12,303 nucleotides of DNA from IMG/VR virus record IMGVR_UViG_2671180673_000008; one strand, given 5' to 3'. Below, in pieces: positions 2,038 through 11,241 of this stretch (position 1 is its first letter; each line of letters begins with the position of its first letter). The DNA comes from a virus (taxonomy: Duplodnaviria > Heunggongvirae > Uroviricota > Caudoviricetes). Below the pieces are notes generated by a model. That model was not told the origin of the DNA. It was given only the letters and a program-made list of their open reading frames with translations, and searched no databases. Position numbers and translations under genes: made by a program.

Positions 2038-2352
2038 TTATTCTGGGAATAAGGTCTGAATATTCTTTTTTATTTTATAAAAATTGCATTCAACTCCGCT
2101 AGGCTGATTATCCTGGTATGTTTCCTTGATGCTAACGGTATTGAAGGGGAGGTTGTCCTCTGGCCATTCGGCCATCCAGTAGGCAAATGCTGGGTTGCGC
2201 TTTATGAGCGCTAGCCCAGCCAGAAAGGCCGCGCGTTGCGCGCGGCTGCGTTCGGAGGCTGGCAGGCTATCGAGGTAATTGCACGCCTCCTGTTCACTCT
2301 TGACGGCGGCGGGCTTCAGATAGAAACTTATCCGTCTGGTTGGTGTCGTCAT
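2038..2352 (-). CDS. parR: ParR-like centromere-binding adaptor (plasmid R1 ParR/StbB family), 104 aa
   Basis: From internal ATG at 2352: MTTPTRRISFYLKPAAV...LDSLPASERSRAQRAAFLAGLALI resembles R1 ParR (...TIAFKLNPDV...LDSIPQGERSRLNRAALTAGLALY) as I remember it. AAGGAG 8 nt upstream. Starts 4 nt after parM stop. The 149-aa track ORF (2038..2487) overlaps parM and is taken as an over-extension. Confidence 0.7.
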   Translation of the reverse strand: MTTPTRRISFYLKPAAVKSEQEACNYLDSLPASERSRAQRAAFLAGLALIKRNPAFAYWMAEWPEDNLPFNTVSIKETYQDNQPSGVECNFYKIKKNIQTLFPE

Positions 2353-2356
2353 TGGT

Positions 2357-3316
2357 TTACTCCTTGTCCATTGCGTACAGCCCATTAACCAGAGCAAACT
2401 GTGGCACCCCGTCCGCGATGAAAGTCGCATTAACTCCGCAGACTTCGCGGATAGCGGGTGCCACAATCTCCGCCCCTCCACCGACAACCATCACCCGCCC
2501 GTAACCCGAAAAAACCGCCAGCGCGCGGATCACGCGTTGTTTCAGTGTTTCTTCCTTTTCACGAATAACCGCCATCAGGCTGGCGTAATGCGCGTCATTG
2601 TGGATGTGCTGGCGCAGCCAGGCTTCATCATGGCGATGTTCGATAATGGTATTGGCGATGTGGTGACTGGTGCGCATACCGTTAGTGGCCATCACCGACA
2701 GTACGGCATCGGCCATCAGGGAAACGCCTACGTGTGGATCGCAAAACACCTGGCTGATACCTGCCAGTTGCCCTTGAACCTTTGCCACATCCAGCGTGGT
2801 TCCGCCTAAATCCACAATCAGCAGGGATTCAAACGGACTCATGTCAGCCAGTGCTTTAAAGCCAGCCGGAATGGATTCAGGCATAACCCGCACGTTACGG
2901 ATAGTGAATGCTTCGCCGTTCTGGTATTCCACCGGGCGCATAACGTTCGCTTTTTTGCGGTTGATGTTGGCCATGTCCGGCTGTGCGTTTGTGTCGAAAT
3001 ACTCGCTCAGTGGCAGGGTGACAACCACATCCACCTCCTGTGGCGTGATGCCTGATTTGACCAGCGCGTGATGAATGGCGATTACATTCACATCGCTGTA
3101 CTGGTATTGCGTGTCGGTCGTCTGGACAAAGCGATCGCTAACCGGATCAAAACCATAGCGCACGCCATCAAGCATGTAGTTCGCGGGCTGCATGCCACCG
3201 AACGGCGCAGACCATTCCGACTTGAAGCTGTTCGGGCTGATGGCGTTGCGGCGTTCGCCATTCTCAGTCCATGCCAGCTTGATGTTGGTGGAGCCGTCGT
3301 CGATACAAATTTTCAT
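2357..3316 (-). CDS. parM: ParM/StbA-like actin-fold partition ATPase, 319 aa
   Basis: N-terminus MKICIDDGSTNIKLAW...ISPNSFKSEW...YSDVNVIAIHHAL closely matches R1 ParM (MLVFIDDGSTNIKLQW...ISPNSFKREW...YSDVNVVAVHHAL) from memory. AAGGA RBS about 9 nt upstream of ATG at 3316. Confidence 0.8.
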   Translation of the reverse strand: MKICIDDGSTNIKLAWTENGERRNAISPNSFKSEWSAPFGGMQPANYMLDGVRYGFDPVSDRFVQTTDTQYQYSDVNVIAIHHALVKSGITPQEVDVVVTLPLSEYFDTNAQPDMANINRKKANVMRPVEYQNGEAFTIRNVRVMPESIPAGFKALADMSPFESLLIVDLGGTTLDVAKVQGQLAGISQVFCDPHVGVSLMADAVLSVMATNGMRTSHHIANTIIEHRHDEAWLRQHIHNDAHYASLMAVIREKEETLKQRVIRALAVFSGYGRVMVVGGGAEIVAPAIREVCGVNATFIADGVPQFALVNGLYAMDKE

Positions 3317-3392: not shown

Positions 3393-6215
3393 TCATATAT
3401 CGCTGCGCGTTTTTTGCTCATTTACGGGATTCGTAAGTCCCGTTTCTGTCTGTTTTTTGTTTCCACTGGTCAGGCCACCCCGCAGCAGGTCTGCTTTGCG
3501 GCTGGCGCGTTCAGTGGTTTCACTGATTCTCTGTGCGTGCTCTGCGTCGCGGATGGCGCGCAGCATGTCAGAAAGCACGGTAACGGGTGTTTTCATGGTG
3601 TTCTGGCCCTGCTGAAGTGTGGATGCCAGGCGTGCGGCGGCTTCAGGGTCTGATGCCCCCAGCTGTGCCAGATAGCTGGCGACCGGGTTATGGCGGATCT
3701 CCGTGCTGCTTACGCCATGATTACGGCTCAGGCGCTGCCAGAGCTGCGTGATTCGGCTGTCCGGGCGGGTATCCGGTTTGCGTACAATTTCAAATCCCTG
3801 CGGTGCAATGATGCTGCCGTCAACGTACAGACTGCCGCCCCGTAACAGGTGCTGCATCTGTTGTTCACCGATATGCAGGCCGAGAGATTCAGCAGACTCC
3901 CGCCATTCTTTAGCGAGTAATTCGTGGTTATCAGGCAAAGGCCGCTGCTGTTTGCGGCTCTGTGTCCAGCTCTGCATTTCATCGCTGCTGTTTTTTGCCT
4001 GTTTGTCACGAAGCGAACGCATCAGCGCCCGGCGTTCGTGTCGTTTCAGTGAGCGCATCCATTCGTTCACTTCAACGCCGTCAGGGAGCTGCGGCCACGG
4101 TGCTGGCCGTTCTTCCGGCTGTTCTGTCCCGTTGTTGTCCGTTTCCTGTACACGGGGACAGTTATTGCCACGAGTCCAAGGGGCGGCAGGGCCGCCCTGA
4201 AGGTCAAAACCATTTTCGCGGGCGCTGTCTTCCGCTTCCGGTTTACGTCTTACCAGCTTCCAGTTATCCGGATGCGTGCACACACGGGAGGATTCCCCGA
4301 TGAGTGGTGACCAGATCCCGTAAATCTGTACGCTCTGTTCGCCGTAATCGTTCAGCTCATCTGCGAGGTCGTAGGCGGTGCGAATCAGGTAGTCCTTGCG
4401 TGGAACAAGCACGCCACCCTGTTTTTCAATGTAGGTGGCAAAACACCCGGCATCGGCGGCAGCGAGTACCGCATCCATTGCATCATCTTTCAGCCGTTGC
4501 GGGCCTTCCGGATTGCGTGCCATCTGGCTGGCAAGGCGGCGCAGTTCACGCCACACCTGACGGGAGGGGATGCCAAAGAACTGGAACTGACGGACCCGGT
4601 GAAGGCGCGCCCAGCCGATGGCGCGCTCCACGCTCTCGGCCATTGATTTTCCGGTTTCGTGGTCCACGCGTGGCTTGCCCGTTTTCGGGTCGATGCCATC
4701 CACGGCGCGGCTGTCCAGGTTCTTTCCGATGTAGGTGGCGATGTAGCTGGTTGGCGTGCCTTTTGAGCCGTCGACATACTCCACCTTAAAGCGCGGAGTA
4801 ATATCATTGCCCAGCTCGTGGCGGTCTTCCTGAATGGCAATATCGCGGGTATGGGACACAATGGTGTCGATTTCTTCCGGATGTGCAAAGACCATCATAT
4901 GCCAGTGCACGGTGCCGTCATGATGAGGCTCCACCGTGCGGATGCCATACCAGCGCAGGCCGTCGCGGTTCAGTTTTTTGCGGACCGCCGCAAAAAACGT
5001 GTTAACCAGGTAATCGCTGGAGTCGCGCATTGTGGCCCCGTTCCATTTGGGATTCGGATGACCGTTCTCCGTTGTGGCGTGGTATTTTGACGGGCAGGTG
5101 ACAGTCAGAAACACCGCTTTGTCGCCACGGGCTTCGGCCAGAAGTTCCAGTCCCTTCATGGTGGCCATCATTTCTGCCTTACGGTGAACCGGGTTACTTA
5201 CTCCCGCGTAATACACTGTCTCGAGATCAATCGTGAACCCGTCTTCATTTTCCAGCATGAAACTTTTCAGGAAATCGCGTGTTTTCTCGCGCTGTGCGCG
5301 AAACTCGCTTAACGCGTCCTGGCTCAGATAGGGTGATGTTTTTCTGGAAACCAGACAGGCGGCGCGGAGTTGTTCTTCTCTCCACTCGCAACGTAACAGC
5401 CACAGTTTGCGTTTCCACCATTCCGCACAGGTCAGGCGAAGGATTGCGCCCGGCAGCAGCTCCGTGTCCGGTTCGTTCCTCCGGTCTTTGTCTGTTGTCA
5501 GTGCGTCATAATGTGGAGGCATGGCGTGCAGGTGTAACGCCATGCGGGCCAGCATCTGATACGCCTTCAGGGTTACATCCATGGTCAGCTCGCCATCGGT
5601 CGCGCCAAAGCCATCGCAGAGTTTTTCGAAGGTGCTGCTGAACATCGCCGCCGTCATGGTGGCCAGCGTCTGTATCTGGTGTTTGTTGAGCTGCGGCAGG
5701 TAAAGCAAATCGTCCAGGCGTTCGCGTCCGGCAAGGGAGCGATAACCCGGTGTCAGCCAGCGTCCGTCAGTGCTATCCAGACGTTCGAATATTTTGCGCA
5801 GGGTTCCGCGTGCATAGCGTTCCGCCTGCCAGCTCTTTTTGCCTTTCCGGCGATCGGCTTCCTGTTTTTTGCGCAGGAAGGAGAGGTGGCGAATAAGCGG
5901 ATCGCGCAGATAGGACGGCAGCAGGCGCAGCGAGGCCATGGCTTCATCCACCGCGCCACGTGCCTGTTTTCTGGCGTCTCCTGCCAGTGTGATGGTTTTG
6001 TCCTGTTTTTCCTGTGCGTCCAGGCTTTTATTAATCAGGTTGCCCAGCGGCGTGGCTGAGAACGCCGCATCAGCCATTTCCTGGCGGCGCTCGTTCTCTG
6101 CCCGGTAGGCATCCAGCCAGGAGGAAAGCGCGGATTCAGGAGCGGGGATCCCCGTTCCTTCACGCCCCACTGCGTGGCGCGGTTGTTGCCAGTCCCTGAG
6201 GTACTCTGCCGTCAT
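3393..6215 (-). CDS. rolling-circle replication initiation endonuclease, phage P2 gpA family, 940 aa
   Basis: Conserved blocks recalled from P2 A: LTVTCPSKYH, TVEPHHDGTVHWHMMVF (HUH metal-binding motif) and TSYIATYIGKN (paired catalytic tyrosines). ATG at 6215 lies 6 nt after the stop of the upstream ORF. Confidence 0.85.
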   Translation of the reverse strand: MTAEYLRDWQQPRHAVGREGTGIPAPESALSSWLDAYRAENERRQEMADAAFSATPLGNLINKSLDAQEKQDKTITLAGDARKQARGAVDEAMASLRLLPSYLRDPLIRHLSFLRKKQEADRRKGKKSWQAERYARGTLRKIFERLDSTDGRWLTPGYRSLAGRERLDDLLYLPQLNKHQIQTLATMTAAMFSSTFEKLCDGFGATDGELTMDVTLKAYQMLARMALHLHAMPPHYDALTTDKDRRNEPDTELLPGAILRLTCAEWWKRKLWLLRCEWREEQLRAACLVSRKTSPYLSQDALSEFRAQREKTRDFLKSFMLENEDGFTIDLETVYYAGVSNPVHRKAEMMATMKGLELLAEARGDKAVFLTVTCPSKYHATTENGHPNPKWNGATMRDSSDYLVNTFFAAVRKKLNRDGLRWYGIRTVEPHHDGTVHWHMMVFAHPEEIDTIVSHTRDIAIQEDRHELGNDITPRFKVEYVDGSKGTPTSYIATYIGKNLDSRAVDGIDPKTGKPRVDHETGKSMAESVERAIGWARLHRVRQFQFFGIPSRQVWRELRRLASQMARNPEGPQRLKDDAMDAVLAAADAGCFATYIEKQGGVLVPRKDYLIRTAYDLADELNDYGEQSVQIYGIWSPLIGESSRVCTHPDNWKLVRRKPEAEDSARENGFDLQGGPAAPWTRGNNCPRVQETDNNGTEQPEERPAPWPQLPDGVEVNEWMRSLKRHERRALMRSLRDKQAKNSSDEMQSWTQSRKQQRPLPDNHELLAKEWRESAESLGLHIGEQQMQHLLRGGSLYVDGSIIAPQGFEIVRKPDTRPDSRITQLWQRLSRNHGVSSTEIRHNPVASYLAQLGASDPEAAARLASTLQQGQNTMKTPVTVLSDMLRAIRDAEHAQRISETTERASRKADLLRGGLTSGNKKQTETGLTNPVNEQKTRSDI
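3418..3460. repeat. hairpin-repeat copy 2, inside the last ~22 codons of gpA
   Basis: TTTACGGGATTCGTAAGTCCCGTTTCTGTCTGTTTTTTGT. Imperfect direct repeat of copy 1, about 73 bp away, with inverted repeat ACGGGA/TCCCGT and a T-tract. Confidence 0.6.
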
Positions 6216-6221
6216 AGTGAT

Positions 6222-6587
6222 TTACTTCGTCATGCCATTCAGGGTGTCGCGGCAGACTGTAGCCAGCCGCTGAATTTCCAGCACGGTGTCTTCTGTGTCG
6301 GCATGGCGATGTGTGATGCGGATGCTGTCGGCAATCACATCGACGATTGCAGAGGATGGGCGCTGGTAAATGCCAATAACGGACGGGGTGCCACCTTCAA
6401 TGCGGTAAAGCCTGTAATTTCCCTCGTGGCTGTCAATCATGTAGCGACCATCAATAACAATCTTTCCGTCAGCGAGCTGCGGTACAGGCAGGGATTTCAG
6501 GTACATGTCATAACGATCACGCACGCGAGCGGCAAGATCACGTTCTGTATTGAGCAGGTATTCAAGAAAGTCGTTGGCGAGAATCAT
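6222..6587 (-). CDS. hypothetical early protein, 121 aa, immediately upstream of gpA
   Basis: ATG at 6587 with AGAGGA about 9 nt upstream. Stop 6 nt before gpA start. No family recognised. Confidence 0.6.
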   Translation of the reverse strand: MILANDFLEYLLNTERDLAARVRDRYDMYLKSLPVPQLADGKIVIDGRYMIDSHEGNYRLYRIEGGTPSVIGIYQRPSSAIVDVIADSIRITHRHADTEDTVLEIQRLATVCRDTLNGMTK

Positions 6588-6659
6588 TGCGGCAATCCTC
6601 TTGTTACAGATGTGCGAAGGCCTCCCGCCGCAAGGTGCAGGAAAGGCCCGGAACAGGAA

Positions 6660-6890
6660 TTAATGGAGTTTGTTTTGCTGCTGGATGAGCTGTTGAAGCT
6701 CGTGCAGATCATCCGCCAGATAGCTGAAAACAGAGGCGGAATAAATGTTTGATAGTGCGTGGCTGCGCTCATGCAGCATATTGATGTGCATGATTTGCGC
6801 GACGCGTGATGCGCGGGAAAGTCTGCGGTTGATTTCAGTCTGGATGTGACGACGCTCCGCGATAGCGCGGTGCTGTTTGCGGTTTGCCAT
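6660..6890 (-). CDS. hypothetical small basic protein, 76 aa, possibly DNA-binding
   Basis: ATG at 6890 with GGGG about 9 nt upstream. Arg/Lys-rich N-terminus (RKQHRAIAERRHIQTEINRRLSRASR). First ORF after the structured non-coding island. Confidence 0.5.
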   Translation of the reverse strand: MANRKQHRAIAERRHIQTEINRRLSRASRVAQIMHINMLHERSHALSNIYSASVFSYLADDLHELQQLIQQQNKLH

Positions 6891-7069
6891 GGTGTGGCCC
6901 CTTGTGTAGTAAGTTGTGAAAACTCACCATCCAGAGCTGCGAAACTGTGGGTGGCGAGACGTACGAGGTTCGCAGTACCGGCTACACAAGAACCCGGCCC
7001 GACCGAAGTCGGCCCCGTACGCCCCGCCATAATTCTGACGCGAAAAAAACGTGGCAATACAGTACGCAC

Positions 7070-7090
7070 AAAAAAACCGCTGGCGCGGTT
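7070..7090 (-). terminator. intrinsic terminator on the - strand inside the early gene string
   Basis: Minus-strand reading AACCGC gcca GCGGTT followed by TTTTTTT (+ strand AAAAAAACCGCTGGCGCGGTT). 6-bp GC-rich stem, 4-nt loop, 7-U tract. Confidence 0.6.
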
Positions 7091-7212
7091 GTGCGCTTGT
7101 GTAGTCAGCAGGCTGCGAAACCCGGCACCCGTTTTATGAGGTGCAGCGGAAATGTAACCTGACTGATTGCGGCATGGCAAGCGGTTTTTTTGTGTGTGCA
7201 TGCTCTGGTTTC

Positions 7213-7998: not shown

Positions 7999-8415
7999 CT
8001 ATGCGTTAAATACGGCACGTTGCGCGTCATCAATGAATACAGCTTGAGAGCGTTCTATCAGGCGGAGATTTGTCAGAAGCTCTGACTCCTTTGTGTGGTA
8101 AGGCGTTATCAGGTATTTGCCGTGCAGTTCGGCAATAATGGTGTATTGCGTCATTATTGCCGAACCAAGAATGTAAATGCGGCGTCCAATGCTGGACGGA
8201 TTCATGGCTGCAACTGTTGACTGTGTTTTAAGAGTGTCGATTTCTTTGCCCTGTTCCTCAATAATTTTGGCTGCGTCAGCGGTGATTTTTGCGATGGTCA
8301 GTGCGTGAAGTGCTGCCATATGTTGGCTACGCTTCACGGCATCTTTAGCCATTTCATCTTCCGCTTCTGATATTTTTTTTAATGTGTTGATAATGCCTTC
8401 TTCTTTTGCGTTCAT
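7999..8415 (-). CDS. hypothetical early protein, 138 aa
   Basis: ATG at 8415 with GGAG 6 nt upstream. Preceded by a ~90-bp AT-rich intergenic region that may hold an internal promoter. Confidence 0.6.
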   Translation of the reverse strand: MNAKEEGIINTLKKISEAEDEMAKDAVKRSQHMAALHALTIAKITADAAKIIEEQGKEIDTLKTQSTVAAMNPSSIGRRIYILGSAIMTQYTIIAELHGKYLITPYHTKESELLTNLRLIERSQAVFIDDAQRAVFNA

Positions 8416-8507
8416 TTTATATCTCCATTATTTACGTGTGCGAATACCTCCGTTAATACGGATGGTTTTCACGTTTTCTTATTTAATTTGATGTTTTATT
8501 TGTATCG

Positions 8508-8621
8508 TTATTCATCAGAGAAAAAACGCTCGATCTTTTTCACTGAATTAATAATTCGCATAATCCCAATGGCGCAGACCACCGAAATAATCAGAACAAG
8601 CCATGAGATAAATATACTCAT
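8508..8621 (-). CDS. small hydrophobic protein, 37 aa, single predicted TM helix; not in ORF track
   Basis: Hand translation from ATG at 8621..8619: MSIFISWLVLIISVVCAIGIMRIINSVKKIERFFSDE, stop TAA. Start overlaps the stop of the upstream 80-aa gene as ATGA. Confidence 0.45.
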   Translation of the reverse strand: MSIFISWLVLIISVVCAIGIMRIINSVKKIERFFSDE

Positions 8622-8860
8622 GCAATATTCCCCAGCTTATACGGTTCAATATGTTCCCCGCATTCTGCGGCACAGATCAGCTCGGAAAGTTCGTTAAGTG
8701 CATCCAGATCATCAGCGTAAAAAGCCACGTCATACAGACTCCGGATTGCCCTGGTCAATGAGTCACGGGCTGCACGTTCAGCATGAGCGCCTGATGCACT
8801 TAAGCGAAAATAAAAACGCTCAAGTGCTTTATTAATGAGAGTTTTATATTCTTTGCCCAT
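8618..8860 (-). CDS. hypothetical protein, 80 aa
   Basis: Internal ATG at 8860 (MGKEYKTLINKALERF...) with AAGGG about 8 nt upstream. The longer track ORF (to 8911) would overlap the preceding gene. Confidence 0.5.
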   Translation of the reverse strand: MGKEYKTLINKALERFYFRLSASGAHAERAARDSLTRAIRSLYDVAFYADDLDALNELSELICAAECGEHIEPYKLGNIA

Positions 8861-8871
8861 CGCAACGCCCT

Positions 8872-9150
8872 TTAATCTGCTTTCTGAATTTCTGCTTCTG
8901 AATCCATACAAATAATTTCGATATAGGGTTCATCGCCATTAGTCTTACGTGCTTTTTCCGCTTCGCTAATGATTTCGTGTACAGTCTGGTACGGAAGTTC
9001 TACGGTCAGGCGCGTGCCGTTCAGATAAACGTAAGTAGCTGCATTTTTTTCGGATGGAACGACTCCATCAATAGCTGATGCGCGTAATAACAGTTCACCG
9101 CGAAAATCAATAAAACGAATAAATACACCTTGTGCATGCTCTTTGGTCAT
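8872..9150 (-). CDS. hypothetical protein, 92 aa
   Basis: Internal ATG at 9150 (MTKEHAQGVFIRF...) with AGGTG just upstream. The track ORF start at 9210 is a TTG codon overlapping the previous gene. Confidence 0.5.
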   Translation of the reverse strand: MTKEHAQGVFIRFIDFRGELLLRASAIDGVVPSEKNAATYVYLNGTRLTVELPYQTVHEIISEAEKARKTNGDEPYIEIICMDSEAEIQKAD

Positions 9151-9160
9151 AAAGCACCTG

Positions 9161-9511
9161 TTATAAATCAGCCTGTTTAATAAAACTTTGTCCGCGAAGC
9201 AGACGATCAACTGTGCGAAGTGCTTCGTACAATGTGAAATCCTGCCCGAACTGATTGTCGCCGTTGCTCAGTGCAAAAATGCGGTTTCCGGTAAATGGGT
9301 TGCGCTGGCATCTGTGAACCACGATTCCTGCTTTTTCAATCAGCCAAGTGTGTTCACCAATTTGTTTTACTGGGTAGCCATCCGGCGTTGCGTGTGTTTC
9401 GCTCAGGCTGTAGCGAGAGTTGCTACGTGATGCACTGGTAGCGAAACGGTTAGCATGGCGTTCCGCACCGTTGCGGAAGCGCTGCTGTGAAGAATTGCGC
9501 TGTAGTTTCAT
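9161..9511 (-). CDS. hypothetical protein, 116 aa; first gene of the second leftward transcription unit
   Basis: ATG at 9511. Divergent from the 63-aa + strand gene across the AT-rich 9512..9648 region. Confidence 0.5.
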   Translation of the reverse strand: MKLQRNSSQQRFRNGAERHANRFATSASRSNSRYSLSETHATPDGYPVKQIGEHTWLIEKAGIVVHRCQRNPFTGNRIFALSNGDNQFGQDFTLYEALRTVDRLLRGQSFIKQADL

Positions 9512-9648
9512 ATTAAAACTCTGTACCTTCGGTAAGGTGTACTCGTGTCACCTTGTATTGATTTGTGGTATTTTTTTTGTGTGTCTAGGACTTGGACTGG
9601 CCGGTTCAGGTCCTGGCTTATGTTTAATTAAATTGTTAAGAGGTTTTC
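9512..9648. promoter_or_regulatory. divergent intergenic control region
   Basis: 137 bp, AT-rich, T8 tract, imperfect inverted repeat (AGGACTTGG...CAGGTCCTGG), between divergently oriented start codons at 9511 and 9649. Promoter elements not confidently placed. Confidence 0.4.
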
Positions 9649-9840
9649 ATGTCAGAAGATAAAAAAGTTGTTAATTTGTTGAGTGAACTTAGTGCTGCTC
9701 TGGATAACATTAACCCTCCCAGGGTAAAAACGACGGGTGATAAAGACGCATTAAACGCAGAGATTCATATATTACTGGCGTTAGTAACTGACAAAATTCA
9801 GCGTAAATACCCACCTGTCACACAACTGGTTGATTTTTAA
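9649..9840 (+). CDS. hypothetical small protein, 63 aa, opposite in orientation to the flanking early genes
   Basis: ATG at 9649 with AAGAGG 5 nt upstream. Ends 9 nt before a perfect hairpin. Confidence 0.55.
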   Translation: MSEDKKVVNLLSELSAALDNINPPRVKTTGDKDALNAEIHILLALVTDKIQRKYPPVTQLVDF

Positions 9841-9846
9841 TTTGAT

Positions 9847-10269
9847 TTATGCCGGGCTGCTCCCGGCATCTTCTAGCTGCCATAATGTCTCGTCACCTGA
9901 TAGAGCAAAACGAAATGAGTGAAGTATATCCTCCCGAGAGAAGCTCACGGCTACAGCTGCGGGAAAGTCAAATATAATCCCACCTTCATTTTTAAAACGA
10001 TTACGCAATTGATAGGCTATCGGTTTGATTTGTGCAGGAAGAGTATCTATATCTCTTCCATTGACAACAGAATCTTTGTTTTCAAGTACTGATTTAGCGA
10101 TTAGATATAGATGCCAGTAACTGGTTACAATTGTTACTCCTGTGATGTGTCGTAAATTAATTGCAATTCGTCCGTTATTATGTTTTTCCGCAAGGTATTT
10201 CAGGTTATCAATTAATGCTTGGTCATTTTTTGAAATAGTTATTGTGAAATCTGACGTGTTTGTTTTCAT
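9847..10269 (-). CDS. hypothetical protein, 140 aa, second gene of the cox-like operon
   Basis: Internal ATG at 10269 (MKTNTSDFTITISK...) 4 nt after the cox-like stop. The 221-aa track ORF overlaps the upstream gene. Confidence 0.5.
   Translation of the reverse strand: MKTNTSDFTITISKNDQALIDNLKYLAEKHNNGRIAINLRHITGVTIVTSYWHLYLIAKSVLENKDSVVNGRDIDTLPAQIKPIAYQLRNRFKNEGGIIFDFPAAVAVSFSREDILHSFRFALSGDETLWQLEDAGSSPA
9849..9869. terminator. 8-bp perfect hairpin between convergent genes; putative bidirectional terminator
   Basis: ATGCCGGG ctgct CCCGGCAT. Overlaps the stop codon of the - strand 140-aa gene. Flanks are A/T-rich on one side only. Confidence 0.4.
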
Positions 10270-10273
10270 ACGA

Positions 10274-10795
10274 TTAGTTGCCTCTGTTGTTTCTGAGTTG
10301 GTCCAGTTTTGAGCTTCTGCCTGTATAAACTCGCTTACCGTTAATGGTCTGGCAGTCTTCTTTATTAGCTGGAGAGAACTTCCTTTTCTGGCGGTCATAC
10401 GTCCAGTAACTTTTCCAGTTGTGCCATTCTGGGGGCTCGTGCTCTGGTAGCTCATCAGCCAACTTGTCCCACTCTTTGGCGTTAAACCACCATACTCCGT
10501 CTGAGTTTTCATCTTCCGGGTTTGTGCGCGTCTTGTGTCCCGGCATTTGACCGCGATGAATGGCTACGCGCAGTGCAGATTTTGTTAGCCCAATATATGC
10601 CGCGCCTTTTTCCAGAGAGCAAAGCCCGGCGATCGGACCATCCAGCCGCAAAGTCGCTCCTTTTTTGTAGGAACGCTTTTTCTTGTTTTCTTCGTGCTCG
10701 TCGTCGTTGGCGGCATCAATGGATCCGCTGAGTGCGTCACTTTCCTGAAGTGGTTGGTGGTCAGATAACTCTTTATCGGCAATGAAGTCCCGCAT
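10274..10795 (-). CDS. Cox/excisionase-like HTH protein with long N- and C-terminal extensions, 173 aa
   Basis: ATG at 10795 with AGAGGA 8 nt upstream. Divergent from the repressor across an operator palindrome. Central segment AAYIGLTKSALRVAIHRGQMP looks like the HTH region of P2 Cox as I recall it. Confidence 0.55.
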   Translation of the reverse strand: MRDFIADKELSDHQPLQESDALSGSIDAANDDEHEENKKKRSYKKGATLRLDGPIAGLCSLEKGAAYIGLTKSALRVAIHRGQMPGHKTRTNPEDENSDGVWWFNAKEWDKLADELPEHEPPEWHNWKSYWTYDRQKRKFSPANKEDCQTINGKRVYTGRSSKLDQLRNNRGN

Positions 10796-10856
10796 TTGTT
10801 ATCCTCTTGCGTTGGTGCGCTTGTCGCGCCTTGTGATGGTTTGTTTTGGCTTGTAA

Positions 10857-10909
10857 AGATAACCAAAAGGTTATCTTTGTGCGAGAGGTTAATACTCAAA
10901 TGGTTATCT
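10857..10909. promoter_or_regulatory. immunity-region operator: perfect 20-bp palindrome plus an extra half-site over the repressor start codon
   Basis: AGATAACC aaaa GGTTATCT at 10857..10876. A third GGTTATCT at 10902..10909 overlaps the ATG at 10900. Confidence 0.6.
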
Positions 10910-11241
10910 TGTCAATAGACTACGCAAAAAAGTTACGTCAGATACGTAAGGCGGAAGGGTTAACACAAAAGCAGTTTGCGGATATTACTGGGTTGTCTTT
11001 GGCAACCATAAGGAATTACGAATCGGGGCAAAAGAACGCTAGAGCAAAAATCGTTGAGGCGGTTCTGCAAGTCGATCGCTTTGAAAAATACATGCTGTGG
11101 CTAATAAAAGATAAGACGCTACCTGTCGCCGGGCAGATTGCTCCGGCTCTCTCTCTTGATGGATCTATTCAGTCGGAGGGCGATCAGGTTTCAATCGGTA
11201 TTACCCAAAAATCACCCCGATCAGGCCGCAATGTTGGCTGA
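10900..11241 (+). CDS. XRE-family HTH repressor (phage C/CI-type immunity repressor), 113 aa
   Basis: HTH signature LTQKQFADITGLSLATIRNYESG. ATG at 10900 with GAGAGG upstream. The track ORF start at 10846 is a TTG codon. Located immediately upstream of int on the same strand, as in P2. Confidence 0.7.
   Translation: MVILSIDYAKKLRQIRKAEGLTQKQFADITGLSLATIRNYESGQKNARAKIVEAVLQVDRFEKYMLWLIKDKTLPVAGQIAPALSLDGSIQSEGDQVSIGITQKSPRSGRNVG

Follow-up and report, generated by a model that had tools for sequence, protein, structure and literature searches.

The subject of this report is a 37-codon open reading frame (ORF), referred to here as the micro-ORF, carried on IMG/VR virus record IMGVR_UViG_2671180673_000008. 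The window, meaning the whole stretch of DNA that was analysed (12,303 nucleotides, nt), covers the early region of a temperate Escherichia coli prophage that is P88-like (Xuanwuvirus, P2-type). Judging from the way in which its sequence is conserved, the micro-ORF is very probably a real, translated gene. Its product, the micro-protein, is proposed to lie in the inner membrane as a single helix, to be made together with the DUF4754 protein that is encoded immediately upstream, and to modulate a membrane function during the lytic programme. This explanation as a whole, mechanistic step included, is given an even chance of being correct.

The evidence for a coding gene comes from related loci, of which 84 were ascertained through the upstream gene and 100 through either gene, with 44 distinct alleles. 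The original prediction had staked the gene on conservation of its frame in relatives, a check that the ORF clearly passes. The ATG, the overlap with the upstream stop codon and the open frame are kept in 84/84 loci, where 77 copies encode 37 amino acids (aa) and 7 encode 45 aa, and this frame alone is open in all 44/44 distinct alleles. Polymorphic sites are distributed over the three codon positions as 6/3/14, and the ratio of non-synonymous to synonymous polymorphism (pN/pS) is 0.21 in the micro-ORF frame, whereas the other two sense frames give 1.63 and 0.99. Differences counted in deep comparisons fall on the three positions as 12/6/22 and 11/5/21. The amino acid motifs of the micro-protein persist at 61-64% nucleotide identity. 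In Escherichia albertii, the micro-protein retains 34 of its 37 residues while the DUF4754 protein stands at 76% identity; in the divergent lineages, the micro-protein is 52-64% identical and its DUF4754 partner falls to 26-40%.

It could be argued that the conservation concerns the DNA or RNA itself, for example a regulatory site or the 3′ untranslated region of the DUF4754 gene, and that the ORF is incidental. The ORF has only 37 codons and is T-rich, hydrophobic ORFs arise easily in such sequence, and the flanking spacer is itself highly conserved. From the single sequence, the micro-ORF is barely beyond chance: the whole window holds 131 mechanically called ORFs of at least 30 aa, and 2 strongly hydrophobic ATG-initiated ORFs of 30-60 aa are observed where mononucleotide shuffles give 0.13. 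It is the comparative data, not the single sequence, that decide the question. The excess of third-position changes and a pN/pS well below 1 are found in this frame only, the other frames are closed among the 44 alleles, and the start codon, the ATGA overlap and a Shine–Dalgarno (SD)-like run are kept in every lineage. Since this coding signature and these signals are retained together, conservation as nucleic acid only is very unlikely, and scarcely any credence is given to it. Two other ORFs that cross the region were rejected, a 69-aa ORF on the plus strand (8488-8697) and a 41-aa ORF with a GTG start on the minus strand (8548-8673), since these frames fail to stay open in most or all alleles and have a pN/pS near or above 1. 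The exception among the alternative frames is the antisense frame that shares its wobble positions with the micro-ORF.

The start codon of the micro-ORF and the TGA stop codon of the gene before it overlap in the sequence ATGA (8621-8618), as the original prediction had noted, and this ATGA/TGA overlap is present in 100/100 related loci. Ahead of it, a purine- and G-rich SD-like run is kept in all lineages in the forms GGGGA, GGGAA, GGGAG, GAGGAG, GAGGTGG and AAGGGGA, although the DUF4754 C-terminal codons that it overlaps differ between lineages. Close to the 3′ end of the gene lies a run of six T residues (T6). The loss of one T from this run produces the 45-aa allele, which has an altered C-terminus (…ERFSLxNNxxNKTxx). 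Such T5 alleles account for the 7 longer copies among the 84 viral-contig loci, occur in several allele backgrounds and also form the separate database clusters P0079 and P0081. They could be the outcome of recurrent slippage, of recombination or of homopolymer sequencing error.

The gene was described in the original prediction as unannotated, which is true of the mechanical ORF track and not of public records. In Escherichia phage P88, the same gene is gp07, “membrane protein” (YP_009113050.1), with a length of 114 nt, a 4-nt overlap with the DUF4754 gene and a copy that is 89% identical. RefSeq entry WP_000021666.1, a “hypothetical protein” of strain MIN10, is identical to the peptide of the window, and phage vB_EcoM-569R5 carries the gene as URC09552.1, “putative membrane protein”. 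These three entries share the position after DUF4754, the length and the overlap, and there is no substantive difference between them and the gene described here. The exact peptide occurs on at least 1000 contigs in a large protein collection, and its UniRef name is “Prophage membrane protein”. The labels are automatic, with neither experiment nor family definition behind them. The micro-protein gene is of a familiar kind, a small single-pass phage membrane protein already held in databases, and its presence is not surprising. What the present analysis adds is a definition of the family, its obligatory DUF4754 partner, its conserved residues and its likely early-lytic coupled expression.

An exhaustive phmmer/HMMER search of 1.84 billion representative proteins returned 8 relatives at E<=1e-3, all of one small family, and no remote homologues. 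The relatives include 41-aa forms with 49-62% identity to the peptide of the window, which keep M1, W7, L10, A17, G19, I23, I24, K28, I30, E31 and F34. Their genes are in every case preceded by one for an 80-aa DUF4754-like protein, with an overlap of 4 nt, though the flanking genes differ. The family can be described by the pattern M-[SN]-x-[FL]-x-S-W … A-[IV]-G … [RK]-I-I … K-x-I-E-x-[FL]-F over 37-41 aa, located straight after DUF4754 with an ATGA overlap, and the peptide of the window fits it. Scans of this peptide and of a 41-aa relative against Pfam, PHROG, NCBIfam and PADLOC assigned no family and gave only chance-level transmembrane (TM) matches. The family is limited to P88-like phages of Escherichia, Shigella, Salmonella and Citrobacter. 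One further copy lies on contig NZ_JBQPOM010000071.1 (2501-2740), which is labelled Vagococcus sp. WN89Y (locus L004); there, the DUF4754 gene is ~97-98% identical to the E. coli prophage copy and the micro-ORF is intact. This copy is most likely the product of assembly contamination or mis-binning.

The translation is the 37-aa protein of the original prediction, and the single TM helix and charged tail proposed there are borne out by hydropathy and by the predicted structure. The best 19-residue Kyte–Doolittle window scores 2.81 and spans residues 3-21. Within this segment, four residues (S6, W7, L10 and G19) do not vary, and a small-xxx-small arrangement, [S/A]13-x3-A17-x-G19, is maintained. 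In the tail that follows, I23, I24, K28 and I30 are invariant and E31 is nearly so, while the final 3-4 residues vary. Residues 22-34 are amphipathic, with an Eisenberg moment of 0.81 that is matched by 1.7% of shuffles. AlphaFold2 (AF2), run on a 12-sequence alignment, predicts one helix over residues 2-35 with a mean predicted local distance difference test score (pLDDT) of 89.7. Hydropathy, amphipathic moment and the AF2 helix agree, and the micro-protein is on these models regarded with high confidence as a single-pass membrane protein. By the positive-inside rule, an N-out/C-in topology is probable: the residues ahead of the TM segment are uncharged, and R22, K28, K29 and R32 come after it. 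In its length, within 50 aa, and its single predicted TM helix, the micro-protein resembles the small membrane-protein regulators, which are grouped by function and not by homology, and it would be inserted in the inner membrane as they are.

The setting of the gene is well defined. The 601 bases around the micro-ORF are 94-95% identical to Escherichia phage P88 and to other E. coli Peduoviridae, including Xuanwuvirus, as well as to Citrobacter phage Shae_phiSM, and the gene order is the same as in P88. This 601-base stretch is present in 1355/5426 complete E. coli genomes, or about a quarter. The placement in a prophage early region that had been proposed proved correct, and the layout is that of a P2-type phage, with the C repressor and integrase genes divergent from an operon that starts at cox and ends at GPA. 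Besides cox, DUF4754, the micro-ORF and GPA, the minus strand encodes DUF4761, a phrog_3800 protein, a MarR-type regulator and an Ead-like protein, and it carries several further small genes. The operon is tightly packed, with three ATGA junctions (two besides that of the micro-ORF) and several gaps of 4-23 nt. The coordinates of the features are collected in Table 1.

Table 1. Features of the window discussed in the text, with the micro-protein gene and its parts first.
Feature	Position	Strand	Details
Micro-protein gene	8508-8621	minus	37 codons + TAA; ATG 8621-8619, TAA 8510-8508; encodes MSIFISWLVLIISVVCAIGIMRIINSVKKIERFFSDE
ATGA start/stop overlap with DUF4754 gene	8618-8621	minus	likely translational coupling site
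SD-like GGGGA	8629-8633	minus	within DUF4754 3′ end, 8-12 nt upstream of micro-protein ATG
Predicted TM helix, codons 3-21	8559-8615	minus	IFISWLVLIISVVCAIGIM; hydropathy, column conservation, AF2 helix
Amphipathic, positively charged juxtamembrane tail, codons 22-37	8511-8558	minus	RIINSVKKIERFFSDE; conservation, alignment
T6 run	8521-8526	minus	codons 32-34 of micro-ORF
DUF4754 (PF15946) gene, 80 aa	8618-8860	minus	ATG at 8860; mechanical ORF extends to TTG at 8911
Conserved 92-nt intergenic spacer after micro-protein gene	8416-8507	minus	stem-loop core 8449-8462, then GG
DUF4761 gene	9161-9511	minus	
cox	10274-10795	minus	Pfam Phage_Cox 31.2 bits
Helix-turn-helix repressor (C repressor)	10846-11241	plus	
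Integrase	11296 onward	plus	
Rolling-circle replication protein GPA (gene A)	3393-6215	minus	Pfam Phage_GPA 437 bits
ParM/StbA actin-like ATPase	2357-3316	minus	StbA_N 274.9 bits, ParM_N 230.8 bits
Plasmid_stab_B protein	2038-2487	minus	98.6 bits
280-aa protein, multi-spanning by eye	1112-1954	plus	weak PADLOC match to Csx27, E=1.1e-5
DUF4760 protein gene	575-1072	plus	119 bits

The micro-protein gene would be transcribed within the early lytic operon that extends from cox to the replication gene A. Ribosomes that finish DUF4754 and terminate at the ATGA overlap would go on to translate the micro-ORF, and such coupled translation is supported by the overlap itself and by the SD-like G-run in the 3′ end of DUF4754. 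The DUF4754 protein and the micro-protein would be made together, early after induction or infection. Expression from an early lytic promoter, with silence in the lysogen, is suggested by analogy with the annotated layout of P2, in which Pe with the repressor operators O1 and O2 lies ahead of cox. Early-lytic, coupled expression of the micro-protein is considered likely. From cox to the micro-ORF, a promoter scan of the sense strand gave no promoter-like site, and the matches across the region number 4, where 6.0 are expected by chance. Relative to P88, the window has an insertion between cox and DUF4761 that holds a 140-aa gene (9847-10269, minus strand) and a 63-aa gene (9649-9840, plus strand), neither with a Pfam family; a 14-bp terminator-like hairpin is located at 9585-9616. 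Early transcription must pass this insert before it arrives at the micro-ORF.

The upstream partner protein matches Pfam DUF4754 at 181.7 bits (cutoff 27, E=2.8e-54) over residues 1-80 of 80, and it also matches phrog_2549. Its AF2 model (pLDDT 88.8) has DSSP helices at 4-48 and 52-66 and is all-helical and soluble-looking. A PDB sequence search and Foldseek comparisons with PDB and BFVD gave generic helical bundles, none at E<=1e-3, and the partner was set aside as a clue to function. Its match to PADLOC is at chance level only (E=0.012).

The close association of the two genes raises the possibility that the micro-protein is a membrane anchor. Its cytoplasmic amphipathic tail would bind the helical DUF4754 protein and tether it to the inner membrane, and the two would form one functional unit with roughly equimolar synthesis. 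Linkage is strict, in that both genes and the ATGA overlap are found at every locus recovered by either gene, with the partner down to 26% identity, and the pair stays together while the flanking genes vary. A tail with an invariant hydrophobic face plus K28 and E31 also agrees with such a role. An interface under tight co-evolution would not be expected, however, to leave an identical micro-protein allele beside DUF4754 alleles as dissimilar as those of loci L099 and L098, whose identities to the reference are 82% and 40%, and it follows from this pairing that the two proteins do not co-evolve tightly. In addition, two Logan contigs, L087 (1501-1830) and L088 (601-930), carry a DUF4754 gene with a 1-nt frameshift that is called as a 109-aa fusion crossing the micro-ORF region in another frame; the micro-ORF is intact in both (MSIFISWLVLIISVVCAIGIMRIIHSVKEIERFFSDE) and is not called. 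With DUF4754 frameshifted and the micro-ORF retained at these loci, the anchor is judged an unlikely role.

The reading preferred here is that the micro-protein is a modulator that acts by helix packing, rather than a pore former or an anchor. The product would be an alpha-helix of ~35 residues, with a 19-residue TM segment that has almost no N-terminal overhang and an Arg/Lys-rich amphipathic tail, inserted N-out/C-in in the inner membrane. The TM helix would pack against another membrane protein, of the host or of the phage, or against itself. Packing would be mediated by S6-W7 at the outer interface, by [S/A]13xxxA17xG19 and by the positions I23-I24/K28/I30/E31, and in this way the micro-protein would modulate, in the course of the lytic programme, a membrane function of the host or of the phage. 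This function is proposed from the conservation of these residues and by analogy with the small membrane proteins reviewed in PMC12648545, the characterised members of which act by packing against other helices (PMC12648545). It is put forward tentatively, at somewhat less than even confidence. A catalytic role for the micro-protein is unlikely.

Among the closest parallels are AcrZ, MgrB, MgtS and KdpF (PMC12648545), which also have fewer than 50 residues, a single TM helix and a short, charged tail. As with regulators of the AcrZ type, the conserved small residues of the TM segment of the micro-protein suggest helix–helix packing. There is no sequence relationship to any of the four, and the micro-protein differs from them in being phage-borne and encoded in an early lytic operon. 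Small membrane proteins have received little study, and a number of them have turned out to regulate or inhibit far larger proteins with high potency. If the micro-protein targets a host membrane protein, it would be a compact natural inhibitor and a clue to the early-lytic effects of P2-type phages on the envelope.

A number of observations weigh against this account. A pN/pS of 0.21 indicates purifying selection, though not strong. The 45-aa frameshift alleles at the T6 run are either tolerated or sequencing errors in 7/84 loci. In phage 503458, the micro-ORF copy is disrupted, the sole disrupted copy found, and the DUF4754 gene there is also broken by indels. The far lower pN/pS of DUF4754 in the shallow set (0.006) is biased by ascertainment, as the 80 viral loci were chosen as best matches to DUF4754. 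The occurrence of one micro-protein allele beside dissimilar DUF4754 alleles, as described above, belongs with these points. In the literature, no paper was found on the peptide or on DUF4754; the P88 papers deal with tail fibres and with Citrobacter rodentium prophages, and Xuanwuvirus is mentioned only in passing.

The original prediction had raised toxin, host-takeover and superinfection-exclusion roles as possibilities. The size, N-terminal TM helix and charged tail of the micro-protein also resemble those of type I toxins (PMC12648545). This opens the alternative of a membrane-damaging peptide that oligomerises and depolarises or permeabilises the inner membrane, in the manner of TisB/Hok or of a holin/pinholin, and thereby brings about host metabolic shutdown or sets early lytic timing. 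The small-xxx-small motif could drive the self-association that this requires. A 41-aa relative gives a very weak TatA-like match (E=0.11) that reflects the architecture of a TM segment plus an amphipathic helix; against the TatA/TatE model NF003393, this relative alone scores, at 12.4 bits versus a cutoff of 104. TisB, Hok, Ldr and Ibs, with prophage-borne examples among the type I toxins, are similar in size, architecture and carriage on mobile elements (PMC12648545). Unlike them, the micro-protein is coupled within a polycistronic operon rather than encoded at a tightly repressed stand-alone locus, and neither an antisense RNA nor a promoter of its own was detected. An Rfam search at E<=1 gave no match of any kind within 8400-8700, and so no antisense-RNA partner, though an undescribed small RNA is possible there, and the lone antisense promoter-like match (9/12) is within chance. 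A holin or pinholin would be expected in a late lysis cassette beside an endolysin, but the gene is placed early, with cox on one side and gene A on the other, far from any lysis cassette and with no lysis genes as neighbours. Early depolarisation would, moreover, be counter-productive for a phage that has yet to replicate. Membrane damage is for these reasons considered improbable, somewhat more so than the anchor.

Exclusion factors commonly take the form of small proteins of the inner membrane. The micro-protein could accordingly serve in superinfection exclusion or defence, blocking the entry of DNA from incoming phages at the inner membrane in the lysogen or in early infection, comparable to T4 Imm. 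Its family is lineage-restricted and fairly fast-evolving (pN/pS 0.21), as is often the case for conflict genes, and the great frequency of the prophage among complete E. coli genomes (1355/5426) also counts in favour. The gene lies, however, downstream of cox, in an operon that the C repressor silences in P2-type lysogens and by inference in this phage, and the promoter scan found no promoter-like site belonging to the micro-ORF. A repressor-controlled operon with no such site argues against expression in the lysogen, and hence against classical prophage exclusion or a type I toxin–antitoxin system. Neither variant of the micro-protein matches a PADLOC defence model, and the lysogenic-conversion genes of P2-type phages are normally found in separate cargo slots. 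Exclusion is accordingly the least probable of the membrane roles considered, with little expectation attached to it.

A bolder possibility is that DUF4754 and the micro-protein constitute a dedicated two-component early module, confined to P88-like phages, in which the peptide binds a specific E. coli inner-membrane protein and disables or re-purposes it. Candidate targets would be a component of division, transport, signalling or membrane-bound defence. This is a speculative suggestion that is probably wrong as it stands; if true, roughly one in four sequenced E. coli strains would carry a novel micro-inhibitor of phage origin.

Small genes occupy an equivalent position in the early operons of the prototype phages. 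The host-takeover genes fil and dhr of phage 186 and orf78 of P2 lie between the switch gene (cox or apl) and the replication module; they too are short genes that overlap and have a structured intergenic spacer after them. In the annotation of 186, fil is described as “overexpression blocks cell division” and dhr as “inhibits host DNA replication”, with the terminator tR1 after them, and in that of P2, orf78 and B are followed by a terminator. Homology of the micro-protein to 186 fil/dhr and P2 orf78-83 was rejected (phmmer ~0 bits), and they are positional analogues only. In contrast to the micro-protein, fil, dhr and orf78 are without a TM-grade segment, their maximum Kyte–Doolittle values being 1.26, 0.49 and 0.17, respectively, and the early operons of P2 and 186 contain no small hydrophobic ORF.

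The spacer that follows the micro-ORF has a core formed by a 5-bp stem (UCCGY/RCGGA) with a variable 4-nt loop and GG after it. The loop-closing pair of this stem shows one compensatory change, being C-G in 23 distinct sequences and U-A in 7. The folding energy computed for the sense RNA is -15.8 kcal/mol (z -5.1, 40 nt). An extended stem-loop was rejected, as only the inner 5 bp are conserved and the outer pairs fail in many sequences. Unlike the terminators of 186 and P2, the spacer is not a canonical intrinsic terminator, there being no U-tail in the sense direction; on the opposite strand, a T-rich run follows the stem-loop. Just beyond this element, the alignment with P88 ends at query position 516, corresponding to approximately 8435 in the window, and this end of P88 homology may mark a module boundary. 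Beyond it lies a 138-aa gene (7999-8415, minus strand) that matches phrog_9338 and no Pfam family. This gene is found in some relatives and is absent from P88, where gp08 directly follows the spacer, and it appears to be inserted cargo. A promoter-like site on the minus strand (8456-8427) is situated just upstream of it.

Further elements lie elsewhere in the window. On the minus strand, Rfam identifies a C4 antisense RNA (83.2 bits, E=1.4e-15) and an isrK Hfq-binding RNA (65.2 bits) at 6947-7034 and 7070-7144, together with a weak c4-a1b1 target match at 7105-7157. These RNAs look like a P1/P7-type antisense immunity module within a P2-type early operon. They are located inside a mechanically called 205-aa ORF (6584-7201), the PGAP label for which in relatives is “ash family protein” and which scores 26.0 against Pfam Phage_ASH at a cutoff of 26. 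Adjoining the replication gene is a plasmid-type partition cassette (2038-3316, minus strand) with the ParM/StbA and Plasmid_stab_B genes, which is not usual cargo in an integrating P2-type prophage. At the far end of the early region, on the plus strand, the genes for the DUF4760 protein and the 280-aa protein may together make up a cassette of defence-type cargo, at the site that tin and old occupy in P2.

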